64,000 bases of DNA from Escherichia phage AV109, in the sequence record OR352939.1; one strand, 5' to 3'. Positions 57,586 to 64,000 of the stretch are shown here, in pieces. Each line of letters begins with the position of its first letter. Position 1 is the first letter of the stretch. Below the pieces are notes generated by a model. That model ran no database searches. It saw nothing but the letters and a program-made list of their open reading frames with translations, and had not been told where the DNA came from. The position numbers and the translations under genes were made by a program.

Positions 57586-57644
57586 TATTTTTCCTTTCAA
57601 TTCAGTATAAGAGAGTTAATTCTAACATTAATTTTATAAAGCGT

Positions 57645-57652
57645 AATAAATA
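57645..57652 (+). promoter_or_regulatory. variant late-promoter-like motif (AATAAATA) upstream of plus-strand small ORF
   Basis: 7/8 match to TATAAATA 22 nt upstream of ATG 57675; same variant as upstream of I-TevI. Confidence 0.25.
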
Positions 57653-57674
57653 ATAAGGTAACTAAGGAGATATT

Positions 57675-57872
57675 ATGTTTAAACTTCCATCGTTAATCAA
57701 CGCTATTAAAGGCAATAAAAAGAAAACTGCTATCGCTGCAATAGTTGTAGGTGGCATTATTTCATGGAACTTCGGGATTGCACCATTGTTAGTTGCCAAT
57801 GGTATTATAGTTCCTTCTGTTCCATTGGATACTGTAGTTGATTTGGCCTTTGCTATTATAGGGCTTGTTTAA
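57675..57872 (+). CDS. small hydrophobic protein (65 aa) on the opposite strand, convergent with gene 61
   Basis: strong SD AAGGAGA 6 nt before ATG; two predicted TM segments; occupies the only minus-strand gene-free gap between 56 and 61. Confidence 0.45.
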   Translation: MFKLPSLINAIKGNKKKTAIAAIVVGGIISWNFGIAPLLVANGIIVPSVPLDTVVDLAFAIIGLV

Positions 57873-58891
57873 ATCTTCGAATAACGAGATAATCTCATTT
57901 TAGCATGCAACCCACTTGAAATATTCTGTTTCATATATTCTAAAATTTCTTGTGGTGTTGCATTTTCTTTCATTACCATATCATTCACATCCTTTGAACT
58001 CCATGGAGCTCGGTCCCAGAACATGACACGTTCGCCTGCATCAACTAATCGCTTCATACGAGCTATAGTATCCGGATGCCTAGGTTCATTATCCATTACC
58101 CATACCCGGCGTTCTTTAAATGGTACCACATCTAAATCTATTGAGCCGCCTGTAATAGCGATTGCATTGGGTATGAATAAACTATCAATAGGACCTTCCA
58201 TTACCCAGACGTCCCCTTCCTTAACACGTTCAACACCATAAATTTTTGTTGCAGACTCAAACGCTTTAATAGTGATATATTTCTGAGGAGCATCTTTACG
58301 AAGTGCACGTCCTTGGAATGACTCGGCCTTCCCATCTTTATTAAAAATAGGAATCACTAAACGCGGTTCAGGAATCTCTTTCTTATACGTACCTGGTTGA
58401 ATCTTGTTGACCAATTTAGGCCATTCTAATGTGAACCATAATCTGTTCCATGATTCTTTAGGAATGCATCGAGACTTAACATATTTCACAATAGGATGCT
58501 CTTCAGGCAACTTGTCCAGACGAGAACAAGACGGCAAAGAATTTATAGTCTTTTTCTCTGGCTCCGGCTTAGCTTCAGGAACCTTTTCAATCTTTGGTTC
58601 CATTCTAGCTTTTTCTTTACGAACTTCCATTAGATATTCGCGATAAAGCTCTTCATCATACTCTTTTAAGTATCCGGAAATTGTATTGTGGTATTGACAG
58701 TTATAGCAATGTACATTACCAGGAGTACCGCCATAATACCAACCGCGAGCTTTCATTGCATCTGTCTGAGAGTCGCCACAAACTGGACATCGAAATGTTA
58801 ATTTAAATGTGCTTGAATTATTGATTTGTCTAAAACGAGGTAGGTGAGAAAACGCACGATAAGCAAATTCATTATCTATCCATTCAGCCAT
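57869..58891 (-). CDS. 61: DNA primase gp61
   Basis: 340 aa; zinc ribbon CPVCGDS..CYNC; near-identical to remembered T4 gp61. Confidence 0.93.
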   Translation of the reverse strand: MAEWIDNEFAYRAFSHLPRFRQINNSSTFKLTFRCPVCGDSQTDAMKARGWYYGGTPGNVHCYNCQYHNTISGYLKEYDEELYREYLMEVRKEKARMEPKIEKVPEAKPEPEKKTINSLPSCSRLDKLPEEHPIVKYVKSRCIPKESWNRLWFTLEWPKLVNKIQPGTYKKEIPEPRLVIPIFNKDGKAESFQGRALRKDAPQKYITIKAFESATKIYGVERVKEGDVWVMEGPIDSLFIPNAIAITGGSIDLDVVPFKERRVWVMDNEPRHPDTIARMKRLVDAGERVMFWDRAPWSSKDVNDMVMKENATPQEILEYMKQNISSGLHAKMRLSRYSKI

Positions 58892-58904
58892 AGTATTCTC
58901 CAGA

Positions 58905-58924
58905 GGCCTTAAATTAATAAGGCC
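58905..58924 (-). other. hairpin GGCCUUA-(6 nt)-UAAGGCC immediately upstream of gene 61 SD
   Basis: 7-bp inverted repeat between upstream ORF stop and gp61 RBS. Confidence 0.35.
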
Positions 58925-58930
58925 ATCTTA

Positions 58931-59425
58931 TCACAACTTATTAATATTTACTTTAATTCGCTTTCTTTTCTTGGAAGGAATTTGTTCGGGACCTTTATTT
59001 ACGACTGCACCTGTAGTTGTTCCTGATGCAATAGCTTGATGGCTGCCACCTGAATCACCAGCAACCATATCCTCAAATAAAGGGAGTTCTTTAAATATTT
59101 CTTTCTGTTGTTCTTCAGTAATGTTATAGCGTGAAGCTACAGCACTCCAAGCAGACATCATTGAGGCCATTCCATTAAGACCCGGAACAGTGCTCATCAT
59201 TCGCTTCATTGAACGAACTGAAGCATGAAAAGGTGTATAAGCCGCTTTCTCTTCAGGAGTAGAAGGACGTTTAAGAACACTTCCACGTTCATCGATGATT
59301 TTGGCTTCGTATGCTTTCCATTCGGTAAAAGGTTTTTGCATTAGTCGAATAAACTTATATGCATAAACAGAATCTATTGCAGTGTTAATAATACCCATAG
59401 GTACCTCCTGAGTATATTTAATCAA
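58931..59425 (-). CDS. hypothetical protein (164 aa)
   Basis: ORF in 41-61 island. Confidence 0.45.
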   Translation of the reverse strand: MIKYTQEVPMGIINTAIDSVYAYKFIRLMQKPFTEWKAYEAKIIDERGSVLKRPSTPEEKAAYTPFHASVRSMKRMMSTVPGLNGMASMMSAWSAVASRYNITEEQQKEIFKELPLFEDMVAGDSGGSHQAIASGTTTGAVVNKGPEQIPSKKRKRIKVNINKL

Positions 59426-59615
59426 TTACAAAGATTGCTTTGTCACCATTTATATCTGTGACTTCATATGTAGTGCCTTCATACTGTGGAATATTCCAAA
59501 TTACACCGTCATTAGCTTTTACGCTAATATGGCATTGGTGTTTTGAAACAACTTCATAATCTTCAAAACTTGTAAAAACACTAATTTTAGAACCAGTGCA
59601 AATTGCAGTAGTCAT
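59418..59615 (-). CDS. hypothetical protein (65 aa)
   Basis: ORF. Confidence 0.4.
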   Translation of the reverse strand: MTTAICTGSKISVFTSFEDYEVVSKHQCHISVKANDGVIWNIPQYEGTTYEVTDINGDKAIFVID

Positions 59616-59616
59616 T

Positions 59617-60276
59617 TTAACCTCGATTCATAAATGCATTAAATATTTGGTCATCAACAGAAATTTCTAATTCGACTTCAATTGCTTCAGCCTTTTCTTC
59701 AGGTGGTAATTCGTATCCACACACTACAATTTTTTCATCGATATCAAAATATACAGAAGCAATACGATTAATGTTATTTTCAGTTAAGTCTAAATCAACA
59801 TCAACATCTTTTTGATCTACACTTAAAGGATAACTAATACGGGTTATTTTATTATCTTTAACAAAGAGTCCACCAACATACTCTGTACTACGTTTGAAGT
59901 TTACACGTTTCCGAATTGAAAGATATGATACATCTTTACCGTGAGCTCGGCTCATAGGACATAATGAATAGCTAGAATAAGAGATGTCAAATCCTACACC
60001 TTCAATATGAGCCAACGTGTCATGATTAAACCAATTATAATCATATGCCAAATCCATTATATTGTAATATGTGAAAGGCACTGGATTAACATCATATGTT
60101 GTACCTTTAAAATCTGCCCAGGCAACGATTTCGTTATCTTTAACAATTACAAAAATTACACCAATATGGTATCCGTTATTATTTTCATTCGGCGTTATAT
60201 TATAACATTGTGCATTAGGAAATTTACCATATTTAAATGGCGCATTTTTGTGCATATAATAAATCATATTATTCAC
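59617..60276 (-). CDS. hypothetical protein (219 aa)
   Basis: ORF. Confidence 0.45.
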   Translation of the reverse strand: MNNMIYYMHKNAPFKYGKFPNAQCYNITPNENNNGYHIGVIFVIVKDNEIVAWADFKGTTYDVNPVPFTYYNIMDLAYDYNWFNHDTLAHIEGVGFDISYSSYSLCPMSRAHGKDVSYLSIRKRVNFKRSTEYVGGLFVKDNKITRISYPLSVDQKDVDVDLDLTENNINRIASVYFDIDEKIVVCGYELPPEEKAEAIEVELEISVDDQIFNAFMNRG

Positions 60277-60562
60277 CTGTGATTTCGGTTACGATATCTT
60301 TGTTATCGAAATTAGGGTCACAATACAAAACATAGTTGTACTGCATGATACCGCCAGACTTAAGTTGTTCAACAACTTTATTAACCATATTAGGACGGTC
60401 TCGTTTAGTGATGTTCATGATATCAGAGAAGATTTGTTGTTCAACATCTTCTTGATTTGCAGTCATTGACCACTCACAGAGGTCTTTATCATAACCTGCC
60501 GTAACTGGAGCCGGTGCACATGATACTGCAAGTAAGATTGCTGCCAATGATAACTTTTTCAT
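60269..60562 (-). CDS. sp: Spackle periplasmic superinfection-exclusion protein
   Basis: 97 aa with signal peptide; GYDKDLCEWSMTA..DIMNI.KRDRP..QLKSGG.MQYNYVLYCD.NF.NK matches remembered T4 Sp. Confidence 0.75.
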   Translation of the reverse strand: MKKLSLAAILLAVSCAPAPVTAGYDKDLCEWSMTANQEDVEQQIFSDIMNITKRDRPNMVNKVVEQLKSGGIMQYNYVLYCDPNFDNKDIVTEITGE

Positions 60563-60591
60563 TTTAACTCCTTAGTTGATTTGATAGGACT

Positions 60592-60621
60592 ACTATACTA
60601 TAGTCCATCTATAATGTAAAC
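60592..60621 (-). promoter_or_regulatory. T4-type early promoter (GTTTAC / TATAGT) for sp
   Basis: minus-strand GTTTAC 60621-60616, TATAGT 60597-60592. Confidence 0.5.
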
Positions 60622-60625
60622 AAGT

Positions 60626-60874
60626 TTATTCTTTTTCGCGAATAATAATTACTTGTTGAGGCTGCTGAGCAGATTTCTTTTCGGCAACGATAGACCAAAT
60701 TAAAGTTCCAATCCAACCAATCATCGTCCAGTTAAAGAGTAAAGATACAAAGAAGATTGCTGTTGTGCTTTTTGTGCCACGAATAAGTGCGATTACCCAA
60801 GGCAACATGTAAATGATGATTGAACCAATACCTGCGATTAAAACTGCTACTGAACTAGCTACGAATAATTCCAT
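60626..60874 (-). CDS. small integral membrane protein (82 aa, 2-3 TM segments)
   Basis: hydrophobic segments VAVLIAGIGSIIIYMLPWVIALI and AIFFVSLLFNWTMIGWIGTLIWSIV. Confidence 0.5.
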   Translation of the reverse strand: MELFVASSVAVLIAGIGSIIIYMLPWVIALIRGTKSTTAIFFVSLLFNWTMIGWIGTLIWSIVAEKKSAQQPQQVIIIREKE

Positions 60875-60935
60875 GTTAATTTCCTCTTGATTTGTTATGT
60901 TTATAGTATCTTATTTTAACTTTGGCGTAAACCAA

Positions 60936-61304
60936 TTAATTAAATTTGTTTAAACGTTCAATACACTGGACGTAGTTATTCGCGATTTGTTTCTGGGTAG
61001 GCTCTTTACCAGTTGTTTCAACATAGCGAATGAATGCGATTTCAGTAGCCTGTAAGCAATGTTCTTTAACGCGCTGTTCTTTTGACATAGCTACAGTATC
61101 AGAATCACGATAACGTTGAGCATGGGCATCAGCTTGAATCATTCGATTACCTACAGTAACCGGGTCTTCCACTTCAACTTTAGGTTGGTCGTACTGTTTA
61201 ACATTCGGATTGTAAATCAATTGGCCGACGTTATTAGGGATAAAGCCATGGGCACCACATCCGGTTAATCCAAATACCATTGCTAAAGCGATTAATTTTT
61301 TCAT
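60936..61304 (-). CDS. lipoprotein (122 aa)
   Basis: signal peptide with lipobox LTGC. Confidence 0.55.
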   Translation of the reverse strand: MKKLIALAMVFGLTGCGAHGFIPNNVGQLIYNPNVKQYDQPKVEVEDPVTVGNRMIQADAHAQRYRDSDTVAMSKEQRVKEHCLQATEIAFIRYVETTGKEPTQKQIANNYVQCIERLNKFN

Positions 61305-61332
61305 TTCAATTTCCTCTGTAGTTGATAGAAAG

Positions 61333-61362
61333 ATAGTAACACAGTATGTGGTGCTTGTAAAC
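61333..61362 (-). promoter_or_regulatory. T4-type early promoter (GTTTAC / TACTAT)
   Basis: minus-strand GTTTAC 61362-61357, TACTAT 61338-61333. Confidence 0.5.
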
Positions 61363-61375
61363 AGTTATTTTAAAA

Positions 61376-61564
61376 TTATCGAAAATCTGCTTCGAAAACT
61401 TTCTCGTCATTAACAAATGCTTTAACTAATGCTTTGTTCACTTCAGCAAGTTGTACCGTAACCCACTCGATTTCTTCGCGATCACCTGATAACATGATAT
61501 CTTTAGTGAACATCTCACCGCTTTTAAACCAACCGATAAAAGTAACTTTAGTTAATTTGCTCAT
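61376..61564 (-). CDS. hypothetical protein (62 aa from ATG 61564)
   Basis: ATGA overlap with upstream stop; track start 61585 overlaps upstream ORF. Confidence 0.35.
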   Translation of the reverse strand: MSKLTKVTFIGWFKSGEMFTKDIMLSGDREEIEWVTVQLAEVNKALVKAFVNDEKVFEADFR

Positions 61565-61878
61565 ATTTCCTCGCAAAATGCCCATTCAGCGTGATAAACT
61601 GTAGCGCCTTTAGTATCATTCATTTGAACTACATCTACCGGAGAAATTACTCGATAGAGACGTGGTTCACCTCCATAAGAGCGTGCTGCTCGTCCTGCAT
61701 AAATCTTTGCTAAACCGATATCTTCAGTAAAGAATACACGATCCAAGTTTTTCTTACGTCCAGTTTCAGACAGAACTCCTGTTTCTTCAGGAGGACAAAG
61801 CATGTTTTCGATGTTAGCTGAACTACTTGAACCGTGATAAAAAATCTTAAATTCTGCTTTACAATCGATGGTTTTCAT
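61561..61878 (-). CDS. hypothetical protein (105 aa)
   Basis: ORF with early promoter upstream. Confidence 0.45.
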   Translation of the reverse strand: MKTIDCKAEFKIFYHGSSSSANIENMLCPPEETGVLSETGRKKNLDRVFFTEDIGLAKIYAGRAARSYGGEPRLYRVISPVDVVQMNDTKGATVYHAEWAFCEEI

Positions 61879-61904
61879 TTTGTTCTCCAGTAGTTGATAG
61901 GTCT

Positions 61905-61933
61905 ATAATAACACAACTACTGGAGAAGTAAAC
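61905..61933 (-). promoter_or_regulatory. T4-type early promoter (GTTTAC / TATTAT)
   Basis: minus-strand GTTTAC 61933-61928, TATTAT 61910-61905, AGACCTATCAACT leader. Confidence 0.5.
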
Positions 61934-62308
61934 TTAAAAACGTAATTTAGATATATCTGCGTTGATTTCGTTTTGGTTTGCGTCGTATGCAATTAAACGA
62001 ACCGCTTTAGATGGGTCATTCAATGCATAGAAATGATGGAACATTGCTCGAACGATATCACCATTTACGAGTTCTACCTGGATAGGAGAACCTTTTTCGA
62101 GTTGGAAATGTTCATAAGCTTTGATGGTTCGTAGATAATCAAGTTTTTGATTTCCGGCTCCAACTATTTGTACGATACGTTTGCCCATGTTTTCCATACG
62201 AGATACAATAGTTTTAGGAGCAAGAATAACGTAGGTTGCCAGCGGAGAAACTACTTCAACAGTTGTGTTTTCGGTGATTGCAGTAAAAATTGCTTGAGAC
62301 ATATTCAT
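61934..62308 (-). CDS. hypothetical protein (124 aa)
   Basis: ORF with AAGAGGAAAA SD; first gene downstream of 41. Confidence 0.5.
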   Translation of the reverse strand: MNMSQAIFTAITENTTVEVVSPLATYVILAPKTIVSRMENMGKRIVQIVGAGNQKLDYLRTIKAYEHFQLEKGSPIQVELVNGDIVRAMFHHFYALNDPSKAVRLIAYDANQNEINADISKLRF

Positions 62309-62337
62309 AATGTTTTCCTCTTGGTTGGTGTAAGTAC

Positions 62338-62367
62338 ATCATATCATGCCTAGAGGAAGATGTAAAC
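62338..62367 (-). promoter_or_regulatory. T4-type early promoter (GTTTAC / TATGAT)
   Basis: minus-strand GTTTAC 62367-62362, TATGAT 62343-62338. Confidence 0.45.
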
Positions 62368-62371
62368 CCCG

Positions 62372-62393
62372 AAAGGAGACCGAAGTCTCCTTT
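62372..62393 (-). terminator. hairpin AAAGGAGAC-UUCG-GUCUCCUUU after gene 41
   Basis: 9-bp stem with UUCG loop 3 nt after gene 41 stop; variant of the repeated GGGAGACCGAAGTCTCCC element. Confidence 0.5.
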
Positions 62394-62396
62394 TTA

Positions 62397-63839
62397 TTAA
62401 AATTTTAACTCGTTGGCTAAGCTATCTAGGTCAGCACGTGTTGCTTTGGCTTTACCTACGCGTTCCGTACGATTCACCTCTGCCTGACGCATCTGAGCAC
62501 CTGCGTTTTCATTTACTGTGTTAGGTGTGTTCATGCCTTCTTGCTCAATCTCAACCCATTTCTGATTGCCTTTACGTACACCCATCAGGAATTTATTCCA
62601 CTTATTCTTATCACCATATCGTGATTTGATTTGTTTGATAAGTTGTTGTTCAGCTTGTGCAAGTTCTTCGGTTTCAATTACGGCCAACATGAAATCTGCC
62701 GTTGCTGGTAAACCTGCTGATTCTGCAATATCACTCATGTTCATGTCTGAAGCATCCCATGCTGCACGTCCTACTTGAGCTGCAGTCCATAGAACTGTTT
62801 CAGATTCTACTGCTAATGCACGAAGTTCTTCTGCGATAGCTTTAACTAATGTGTAGCTATTTTCAGTGTAAACTCTGATACGACAAGACCCACAAATACC
62901 TAAGTAATCAACCATGATTACAGATGGCACAAAGTTCTTCTTGAGTTTCAATTCATTAAGCAATGCACGGAATGTATTAGCATTAGCTCCGCCAGTAGGA
63001 TACTGTTTAACTACTAAACGTCCTAATGTGGATTTTGAACGCCATTTTTCCATCTTGGCTTTATATTCAGCATAAGATACGTTACCATCATCAATATCAT
63101 CGAGCGATACGTCAAGCATGTTTGCATCTATACGCTTAGCACAAACTTCTTCAGCCATTTCCATAGAAATATAAAGAACATTATGACCTGTTTGAAGATA
63201 ATCTGCAGCAAGTGAACAAAGGCCTAAAGATTTACCAACGTTAACACCGGCCATTAAAACATTCAGTGTACCGGTTTCAGCACCACCTTTAGTGATTTTA
63301 TTCAAAATGTTTAATTTGAACGGGACCTTACGTGCTTTGTTCAGATAAGAAAGCCAGCGTGCTTCATAGTCTTCCATCCAGTCATGTCCAACATAACTAT
63401 CGAACGAAATTGAAAGTGCTTGACGCATAATATCAGGAATAGCTCCTACGTCAGGCATTTTCTTGTTACGTTGTTCTGGAGGTAGTTCAGCATTAGACTG
63501 AATCTCAATGATTTTGGATGTAGCATTATACATCGCTTTTTGCTGGACATATTTCTCAGTTTCTTTAACCAACCATTCATGGTCTTCAGGAGTATCAGCC
63601 AATTTTTCAATTAGGTCCGAAGTTCCTTTATATTCGGCTTCAGTTAAAGAACTGTTATCTAAAGCCACCTTTAATGCATTGATAGATGGCATTGCATTAT
63701 ATTCGTTAACGTGGCTCTTTATAATTTTAAAGACATTTTTTGCCGGTCCACGCTCAAAATACTCAGAATCCATATAAGGCCAGACCTTAGAAAAATAAGC
63801 CTGGTCATATACTAGATGAGACAAAATAATTTCTACCAC
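62397..63839 (-). CDS. 41: replicative DNA helicase gp41 (DnaB-like)
   Basis: 480 aa near-identical to remembered T4 gp41; GTG start preceded by AAGGAG SD. Confidence 0.95.
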   Translation of the reverse strand: MVEIILSHLVYDQAYFSKVWPYMDSEYFERGPAKNVFKIIKSHVNEYNAMPSINALKVALDNSSLTEAEYKGTSDLIEKLADTPEDHEWLVKETEKYVQQKAMYNATSKIIEIQSNAELPPEQRNKKMPDVGAIPDIMRQALSISFDSYVGHDWMEDYEARWLSYLNKARKVPFKLNILNKITKGGAETGTLNVLMAGVNVGKSLGLCSLAADYLQTGHNVLYISMEMAEEVCAKRIDANMLDVSLDDIDDGNVSYAEYKAKMEKWRSKSTLGRLVVKQYPTGGANANTFRALLNELKLKKNFVPSVIMVDYLGICGSCRIRVYTENSYTLVKAIAEELRALAVESETVLWTAAQVGRAAWDASDMNMSDIAESAGLPATADFMLAVIETEELAQAEQQLIKQIKSRYGDKNKWNKFLMGVRKGNQKWVEIEQEGMNTPNTVNENAGAQMRQAEVNRTERVGKAKATRADLDSLANELKF

Positions 63840-63848
63840 GATAACTCC

Positions 63849-64000
63849 TTAAAAGAATTTAAATTTTTTCTTGGTTCGTTCATTAAAAGCTTGTTGTACT
63901 TGCATTGTAACACATTTTTCAACGTGTGGTGCAAGTTCTGCTTTTCTGTCCTGGTCAAGAACTGCAAAGTCCATTACGATTTTACCATCAACCCAGTCTA
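63849..64000 (-). CDS. partial CDS (C-terminal 49 codons of the gene upstream of 41), hypothetical
   Basis: frame open from window edge to TAA 63851-63849; hand translation ..DWVDGKIVMDFAVLDQDRKAELAPHVEKCVTMQVQQAFNERTKKKFKFF. Confidence 0.4.
   Translation of the reverse strand, partial: DWVDGKIVMDFAVLDQDRKAELAPHVEKCVTMQVQQAFNERTKKKFKFF

Follow-up and report, generated by a model that had tools for sequence, protein, structure and literature searches.

A probable variable early region of envelope and cytoplasmic gene cassettes between genes 41 and 61 of Escherichia phage AV109

We analyzed a stretch of 64,000 nucleotides from Escherichia phage AV109 (record OR352939.1, hereafter the window), and focused on the island of small genes between gene 41 (62397-63839) and gene 61 (57869-58891). 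The island spans positions 58931-62308 and, as a preliminary description of the sequence had proposed, holds nine tightly packed open reading frames (ORFs), everything being on the minus strand. In a megablast search of positions 57800-63900, which matched 702 phage records, the closest genome was that of Escherichia phage AV114 (Mosigvirus), with 99.6% DNA identity over the full length, which places the window in this genus. Compared with their RB69 counterparts, the nine proteins show 97-100% identity, and the RB69 reference record (NC_004928) already names 61.1, 61.2, sp, imm, imm.1, and dmd at the same position. Its order in the direction of transcription is ORF041c, ORF040c, dmd, 61.4, imm.1, imm, sp, 61.2, ORF033c, and ORF032c/61.1. 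All nine proteins match a PHROG family (E-values from 9e-29 to 7e-131), the Pfam families Dmd, DUF5481, Imm_superinfect, T4_Spackle, and AdfA were matched above threshold, and the T4 counterparts show pairwise identities of 32-73%. As a whole, the island is thus already known: its genes can be found in the RB69 record as well as in over 150 near-identical genomes, and published work covers what imm, sp, dmd, and adfA do. Our own analysis concerns gene identities, folds, synteny, and promoter motifs. A recent foreign acquisition of the island was rejected, since its GC content (0.32-0.40) matches that of the flanks. A scan of positions 57600-64000 against Rfam found no RNA family.

Just 3' of gene 41 and upstream of the first promoter lies a GC-rich hairpin with a UUCG loop (62372-62393, minus strand; -16.2 kcal/mol, z -2.3), predicted to be a terminator or a stem-loop of the promoter/stem-loop (PeSL) type. 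In the direction of transcription it is followed by ORF1 (RB69ORF041c; 61934-62308, 124 amino acids; phrog_10668, E-value 3e-86), ORF2 (RB69ORF040c; 61561-61878, 105 amino acids), which is a stand-alone domain with an Arr-like ADP-ribosyltransferase fold, and dmd (61376-61564, 62 amino acids). Then come imm.1, encoding a predicted lipoprotein (60936-61304, 122 amino acids), imm, encoding an inner-membrane superinfection immunity protein (60626-60874, 82 amino acids), and sp, encoding Spackle (60269-60562, 97 amino acids). The last three genes are adfA, or 61.2 (59617-60267, 216 amino acids), in its RB69-type Arg164 allele, ORF8 (RB69ORF033c; 59418-59615, 65 amino acids; phrog_3249), and ORF9, a full-length 61.1 (58931-59398, 155 amino acids; phrog_2086). 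These coordinates include corrected starts for dmd (61564), adfA (60267; the protein has 212 amino acids in RB69 numbering), and ORF9 (59398). A second hairpin, between ORF9 and gene 61, lies at 58902-58928 (minus strand; -13.5 kcal/mol, z -3.1).

The preliminary description had recognized Spackle, a lipoprotein with an LTGC lipobox, and an 82-residue membrane protein among these ORFs. All three hold: sp is where the Pfam profile T4_Spackle places it, the lipoprotein is Imm.1, and the membrane protein, with two hydrophobic segments, is Imm itself. They are also the only proteins of the island with a signal peptide or a hydrophobic or membrane segment (3/9); the other six, ORF1, ORF8, and ORF9 included, have neither. 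Compared with the other small ORFs of the window, of which a crude ORF call gave 7 envelope-type proteins in 66, this is a weak enrichment (Fisher one-sided p = 0.09), which does not bear out the concentration of secreted and membrane proteins reported before. What is notable is the contiguity of the three envelope genes, not their number.

That description had gone on to propose that the whole island, unassigned ORFs included, is a module for superinfection exclusion or envelope remodelling. The idea has in its favor the three adjacent envelope genes, two of which are known T4 exclusion genes, but we consider it very improbable. Beside the weak enrichment and the six proteins lacking any export or membrane signal, two of the products are cytoplasmic anti-toxin factors (PMC5308261, PMC11257639), identified by their matches to the Pfam families Dmd (E-value 7e-21) and AdfA (about 4e-119), and ORF2 has the ADP-ribosyltransferase fold of enzymes that use nicotinamide adenine dinucleotide (NAD+). 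Hence, given the cytoplasmic identities of other ORFs, the island as a whole is not an envelope-remodelling module, and the proposal stands for the imm.1-imm-sp trio but not for the other six genes. Similarly, among the uncharacterized further members of an exclusion system that had been anticipated, only Imm.1 fits.

Promoters are fewer than the one per gene that had been claimed: five instead of nine. The early-type motif GTTTAC-N16/17-TAnnnT occurs only in the five long gaps (55-88 nucleotides) of the island, all on the minus strand. These precede ORF1 (62338-62366; TTTACA-17-TATGAT, with an extended TG), ORF2 (in the spacer 61878-61932; TTTACT-16-TATTAT), imm.1 (61333-61361; TTTACA-17-TACTAT), imm (60903-60931; TTTACG-17-TACTAT), and sp (60592-60620; TTTACA-17-TATAGT). 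At the other four junctions, with distances of -4, 1, 1, and 19 nucleotides, the gene overlaps or abuts its upstream neighbor. From this layout, the likely transcription units would be ORF1, ORF2-dmd, imm.1, imm, and sp-adfA-ORF8-61.1. The whole window has 21 copies of the motif on the minus strand and one on the plus strand, so five copies in 3.4 kb are dense. The motif fits the consensus of T4/PST PeSL promoters, TTTACW-N17-TAYWAT (PMC4122927), and the five spacers fit the PeSL-type layout, in which such a promoter precedes a Shine-Dalgarno sequence and start codon, in intergenic position within a variable region. In three of the five, a 33-nucleotide repeat extends from the -10 box to the Shine-Dalgarno sequence. 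Only the T4-specific early motif is informative here: a generic sigma-70 scan gave no clear excess of promoter-like sites (30 found vs 23 ± 4.6 expected).

The spacer between ORF1 and ORF2 folds into a hairpin of 14 base pairs (61878-61932, minus strand; -21.1 kcal/mol, z -5.0), whose loop contains the -10 box of the ORF2 promoter and whose 3' arm pairs with the ORF2 Shine-Dalgarno sequence. According to this folding model, RNA reading through from the ORF1 promoter would mask ORF2 translation and RNA initiated inside the hairpin would not. Similar hairpin-type control is found in T4 for e, soc, and I-TevI. The imm-sp spacer also has a hairpin that overlaps the promoter itself, as that of ORF1-ORF2 does. 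A fold scan of the spacers before imm.1 and imm detected no stem-loop, and the spacer after gene 41 is the only one in which a stem-loop clearly precedes the promoter.

The contiguous block of imm.1, imm, and sp is a superinfection-exclusion element, in which imm and sp are already characterized T4 exclusion genes and are annotated at this position in the RB69 record. Imm matches Imm_superinfect (PF14373) with 57.2 bits (cutoff 27.9), is 65% identical to T4 Imm over 83 residues, i.e., the full length (E-value 3e-37), and has its hydrophobic segments at about residues 1-34 and 40-59. Spackle matches T4_Spackle (PF25676) with 145 bits (E-value 1e-42; cutoff 27) and is 66% identical to T4 Sp. It has a cleavable signal peptide and conserved cysteines at positions 29 and 81, and the stretches TA|GYDKDLCEW and VLYCD are conserved in its alignment with T4 Sp. 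For the functions of these two proteins, as for those of Dmd and AdfA, we rely on the T4 and RB69 literature. The mechanism of Spackle is solved, and its disulfide and maturation have been described: the mature form, a periplasmic helical bundle of 75 residues, forms a 1:1 complex with the gp5 tail lysozyme and inhibits this enzyme, and superinfection exclusion is achieved by Spackle together with Imm (PMC7677548). By analogy, Imm would block from the inner membrane the entry of DNA of superinfecting T-even phages, and Spackle, exported to the periplasm, would inhibit the gp5 tail lysozyme of the incoming particles.

The third member of the block, Imm.1, matches DUF5481 (PF17578) with 37.4 bits (cutoff 27) and phrog_1754 (E-value 9e-29), and is 32% identical to T4 Imm.1 (E-value 1e-18). 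Its N-terminus is hydrophobic, the LTGC lipobox places the lipid cysteine at position 16, and cysteines 83 and 114 are also conserved. The lipobox is LAGC in T4 Imm.1 and LAGC, LTGC, or LSGC in four other genera, with the two C-terminal cysteine columns invariant. The lipid cysteine is never followed by an Asp, and an outer-membrane anchor is therefore predicted under the Lol sorting rule of E. coli. We found no paper in a literature search on imm.1 and nothing meaningful in a PDB sequence search; a scan of IMG/VR gave two loci only, and a word-indexed search three relatives only.

Imm (at least 60% identity) and Imm.1 were found in 656 phage records each, at the level of Mosigvirus plus Tequatrovirus. 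In six Tevenvirinae genera the gene of a phrog_1754 lipoprotein adjoins imm or is two genes off, and the pairing spans two genomic locations and both gene orders. The imm.1-type gene is upstream of imm in T4, Mosigvirus, Gelderlandvirus STP4-a, and Jiaodavirus pKp20, and downstream of it in Dhakavirus PSD9 and in Gaprivervirus MN01, at a distance of two genes in the latter. The lipoproteins of the distant genera match phrog_1754 over their full length (E-values from 2e-15 to 3.5e-52), and it is this PHROG profile alone that joins them to the T4/RB69 type, as a small profile-profile test of mature domains detected no similarity between the T4/RB69 type and the Gelderlandvirus/Jiaodavirus/Dhakavirus/Gaprivervirus type. 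Since the pair was kept through relocation and change of order, we argue for a shared role: because imm.1 travels with imm, we infer that its product, predicted to be anchored in the outer membrane, probably assists or extends the exclusion mediated by Imm.

Several points weigh against such a role. To our knowledge, a contribution of Imm.1 to exclusion has never been demonstrated, and Lu and Henning are said to have seen immunity conferred by plasmid-borne T4 imm alone. A partnership that is required would also fit poorly with the separate promoter of imm in the window and with a metagenomic Imm.1 homolog that has lost the lipobox cysteine. These last two observations, together with the variation in order and spacing of the two genes between genera, would be expected if imm.1 were hitch-hiking, i.e., if it encoded an unrelated lipoprotein sharing a cassette with imm, such as a receptor blocker like Llp of T5 or an accessory of lysis or lysis inhibition. 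Hitch-hiking explains less well why the pair remained intact when it moved between the 43-42 and 41-61 intervals and when its order was inverted, or why the record counts of the two genes are identical. We see it as possible but rather doubtful. In the unrelated Escherichia phage Bas77 (46 kb), the gene directly before that of an Imm-family protein encodes a product of 97 residues that has two cysteines and a Sec signal peptide; here, too, an Imm protein is accompanied by an exported partner.

The cytoplasmic part of the island includes two genes of known counter-defence function. Dmd matches its Pfam profile (PF17587) with 74.7 bits (cutoff 27) and is 58% identical to T4 Dmd, a phage antitoxin that replaces RnlB/LsoB and blocks the RNases RnlA and LsoA (PMC5308261). 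AdfA matches PF23813 with 396 bits (E-value 3.7e-119) and is 65% identical to T4 61.2. The protein counters the DNA ADP-ribosyltransferase DarT. Its Arg164 form is reported not to neutralize DarT1 and its His164 form to do so, and R164H escape mutants arise readily (PMC11257639). The corresponding residue in the window (168 in the form of 216 amino acids) is an Arg, in the context NNINRIAS, where T4 AdfA has the His of the neutralizing allele. Hence, the phage is predicted to be sensitive to DarTG1 unless its adfN (30.3) is intact. By analogy with the published cases, dmd and adfA would both act in the cytoplasm against host toxin-antitoxin defences (RnlA/LsoA RNases for the former, DarT for the latter).

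ORF2, whose stop codon overlaps the start of dmd (ATGA), belongs to a family that we found, with identities of 60-100%, in 609 records of phages infecting Escherichia, Klebsiella, Acinetobacter, Aeromonas, and Vibrio. It has the fold of an ADP-ribosyltransferase. Its AlphaFold model is confident (predicted local distance difference test score, pLDDT, of 85.5). In BFVD, the match was a phage entry called 'Ms Rifampin ADP-ribosyl transferase' (E-value 3.8e-8), and a few GenBank records already label the family 'ADP-ribosyl transferase'. When a profile of 57 sequences was compared with Arr-3 by hhalign, the probability was 94.8% and the E-value 5e-8, with FYHG(S/T) and (V/I)(F/Y)F(T/S) among the matched segments; 24 of the 57 short relatives match Arr-ms (PF12120). 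In a 28-sequence alignment, the invariant residues are H15-G16, E38, R41, N44, F49, T51, D53, Y60, R63, and E103. As regards the NAD+-site motif of Arr, the His of HG[ST] is invariant in the family, and the Tyr position of the (I/V)(Y/F)F(S/T) strand is taken by an invariant Phe.

A profile search among 1.84 billion representatives retrieved 221 relatives of ORF2. Many of them are domains of about 95 residues, terminal or internal in proteins of 500-3900 residues, and these segments match Arr-ms above threshold. According to the Pfam architectures, on which this survey draws exclusively, the co-occurring domains are ART-PolyVal, NUDIX, a lambda-type portal with a 2H/Acb1-like phosphoesterase, GNAT, and Toprim, and the fusions seen combine portal and 2H/Acb1-like phosphoesterase, ART-PolyVal and NUDIX, or GNAT and Toprim. 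By its sequence, the ORF2-type module is therefore part of polyvalent and portal-fusion proteins of other phages, a context associated with virion delivery.

The known systems closest to ORF2 are the anti-CRISPR AcrF11, Arr, and the NAD+ lobe of Tpt1/KptA. ORF2 is shorter than Arr-3, which has 150 amino acids. Unlike Tpt1/KptA, it has no N-terminal RNA-binding lobe, which in these enzymes carries the catalytic Arg-His-Arg-Arg set, and it aligns to 75 of the 179 Tpt1 residues. We thus rejected the possibility that it is a full Tpt1, as 105 amino acids leave no room for a second lobe. We know of no link of ORF2 to rifampin or CRISPR, and of no biological reason to expect rifampin ADP-ribosylation in a lytic phage. 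A PDB sequence search with the family profile gave nothing, and a literature search on the family found no paper.

We read ORF2 as a putative active, minimal Arr-like ADP-ribosyltransferase, which would be cytoplasmic and, early in infection, most likely consume NAD+ in the modification of a target of the host or of its defences. Two observations count against this. A Pfam scan of ORF2 itself gave no match at E <= 1 and no Pfam family, and the invariant Phe occupies the position equivalent to Tyr49 in Arr. This Tyr is the residue stacking on nicotinamide, and its replacement in a protein of only 105 amino acids, from an island that also encodes the anti-DarT factor AdfA, might mean that ORF2 is inert: a binder of NAD+ or ADP-ribose, a decoy, or a protein inhibiting a host transferase, for example DarT. 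We find this unlikely, because the invariant H15-G16, F49/T51, Y60, R41, R63, and E103 form the pattern expected of an active site of the H-Y-E type, conservation is very high (60-100% identity) from Escherichia to Aeromonas hosts, and the domain is reused as a terminal module of large effector proteins. The reading of ORF2 as an active enzyme can be joined to that of Imm.1: the Imm.1-family lipoprotein would be the working partner of Imm, a third exclusion component in the outer membrane or periplasm, and ORF2 an early enzyme that, like AcrF11, ADP-ribosylates its target, here one of host defence or takeover. We propose the two together only tentatively.

The neighborhood of ORF2 differs between phages. 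Aeromonas phage 44RR2.8t has its homolog in the vicinity of hoc and gene 24, and a Vibrio phage has it at yet another place. A fixed functional pair of ORF2 and dmd was rejected, as the adjacency is lost in Klebsiella, Aeromonas, Acinetobacter, and Vibrio phages. Since the neighbors vary between phage genera, the 4-nucleotide overlap with dmd is a local feature. In the Acinetobacter phage Acj61, the homolog is preceded by a gene for nicotinamide phosphoribosyltransferase, an enzyme of NAD+ salvage, and followed by sp, a 61.1 gene of 159 amino acids, and gene 61. The NAD+-salvage neighbor is suggestive in that it fits an NAD+-consuming ORF2.

The other three genes encode soluble proteins in the scheme we propose. 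ORF1 has no hydrophobic segment and is essentially restricted to Mosigvirus: it was found in 134 phage records, only two of them below 60% identity, and no PDB, Pfam, or NCBIfam assignment could be made. ORF8 is acidic and soluble, and is present in 262 phage records; among these are genomes with the label Mosigvirus or Dhakavirus and Salmonella T4-like phages such as S16 and Melville. PDB sequence searches with ORF8 and ORF9 gave nothing meaningful and NCBIfam nothing.

ORF9 consists of a helical N-terminal domain, a conserved MVAGDSGG...GTTTGAVVNKGP motif, and a basic tail (AlphaFold2 model with a pLDDT of 64). Its C-terminus is 73% identical over 40 residues to T4 61.1, which has 54 amino acids, and by this alignment the T4 protein corresponds to the C-terminal part only. 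The form of about 155 amino acids is the usual one among T4-like phages, with 112 homologous clusters. In the RB69 reference, a 1-nucleotide deletion splits the gene into 'gp61.1' and 'ORF032c'; in the window it is intact. The internal proteins of T4 carry the capsid-targeting sequence MKTYQEFIAE, and the N-terminus of T4 61.1, MKTFKEFIKE, resembles it. We also noted that LFE/IKE right before the conserved DMVAGD (about 59090-59100 in the window) agrees with (L/I)xE, the motif at which the prohead protease cleaves, and that 'Major capsid protein' is the name given to two of the family's UniRef entries. As a speculative hint, 61.1 could be a packaged protein.

How did this arrangement arise? 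RB69 has the same genes in the same order in its 41-61 interval, but also 61.4 between dmd and imm.1, which is missing from the window through a clean deletion of about 205 nucleotides. The last 10 nucleotides of 61.4 remain at 61366-61375, just upstream of the imm.1 promoter. The presence of this gene varies among Mosigvirus genomes that are otherwise 98% identical, and many records carry the extra 205 nucleotides. The T4 interval contains dmd, 61.4, sp, 61.2, and 61.1; the T4 orthologs of dmd, sp, 61.2/adfA, imm, and imm.1 show 32-66% identity. In T4, imm.1 and imm are 11 nucleotides apart and belong to the interval between genes 43 and 42, at a distance of about 6 kb, whereas in the window they are directly upstream of sp and imm has a promoter of its own. 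The 43-42 interval of Mosigvirus holds other genes, including one for arabinose-5-phosphate isomerase. T4 lacks ORF1, ORF2, and ORF8 in the two intervals examined (41-61 and 43-42), and its 61.1 is a stub compared with the 155 amino acids in the window.

It was proposed that, in variable regions, cassettes are gained, lost, and relocated by way of such early-promoter repeats (PMC4122927). The promoters in the window resemble the PeSL cassettes (Arbiol 2010; Comeau 2014, PMC4122927) in that they lie in variable-region spacers, near the 61.4 indel and the relocated cassette, and the early-promoter repeat is found at every cassette boundary of the island. They differ in the stem-loop, which is upstream of the promoter in PeSL cassettes, a position clearly matched here only after gene 41, and which overlaps the promoter in two spacers. 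We infer that cassettes would have been shuffled at such promoter repeats in this phage as well. A literature search on hyperplastic regions with RB69 found no paper.

Taken together, these data lead us to regard the 41-61 interval, with a probability of roughly 85%, as a variable ('hyperplastic') early region of an RB69-type T-even phage, made of independently promoted cassettes whose products belong to different compartments. The island would be a mosaic row of small early gene cassettes, with an envelope block set among cytoplasmic genes. Some points weigh against this picture: the PeSL-mediated relocation is deduced from motif positions alone, and three of the nine genes (ORF1, ORF8, and 61.1) remain without a functional clue.

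One may ask whether the cassettes came together by chance or whether selection favored their clustering, with all nine genes serving competition: dmd, adfA, ORF2, ORF1, ORF8, and 61.1 against host defences, and imm.1, imm, and sp against rival phages. Such roles are already established for four of the nine genes and predicted for imm.1 and ORF2, domains of the ORF2 type are found in polyvalent proteins of phages, a typical class of conflict effectors, and all nine genes are early. We nevertheless hold a selected cluster of this kind to be somewhat unlikely. The ORF2 family is found in unrelated places of other T4-like phages (44RR2.8t and the Vibrio phage) and T4 has imm and imm.1 in its 43-42 interval, which indicates that the grouping is specific to the genus. 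Furthermore, non-essential genes of every sort accumulate in the variable regions of T4-like phages (PMC4122927).

Outside the island, between genes 56 and 61, the opposite (plus) strand encodes a strongly hydrophobic protein of 65 amino acids, RB69ORF029w (57675-57872), i.e., another small membrane protein, with a terminator-like hairpin nearby (57782-57803).

The outcome of this analysis is a corrected map of the island, with the identities of its ORFs, five promoters instead of nine, and three envelope proteins in place of a nine-member module. It also singles out two under-studied members: Imm.1, for which one may ask what role it has with Imm in exclusion, and the ORF2 enzyme family, present in about 600 phage genomes, for which one may ask what is modified. 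If true, the role proposed here for Imm.1 or for ORF2 would add a component to the well-studied biology of T-even phages.

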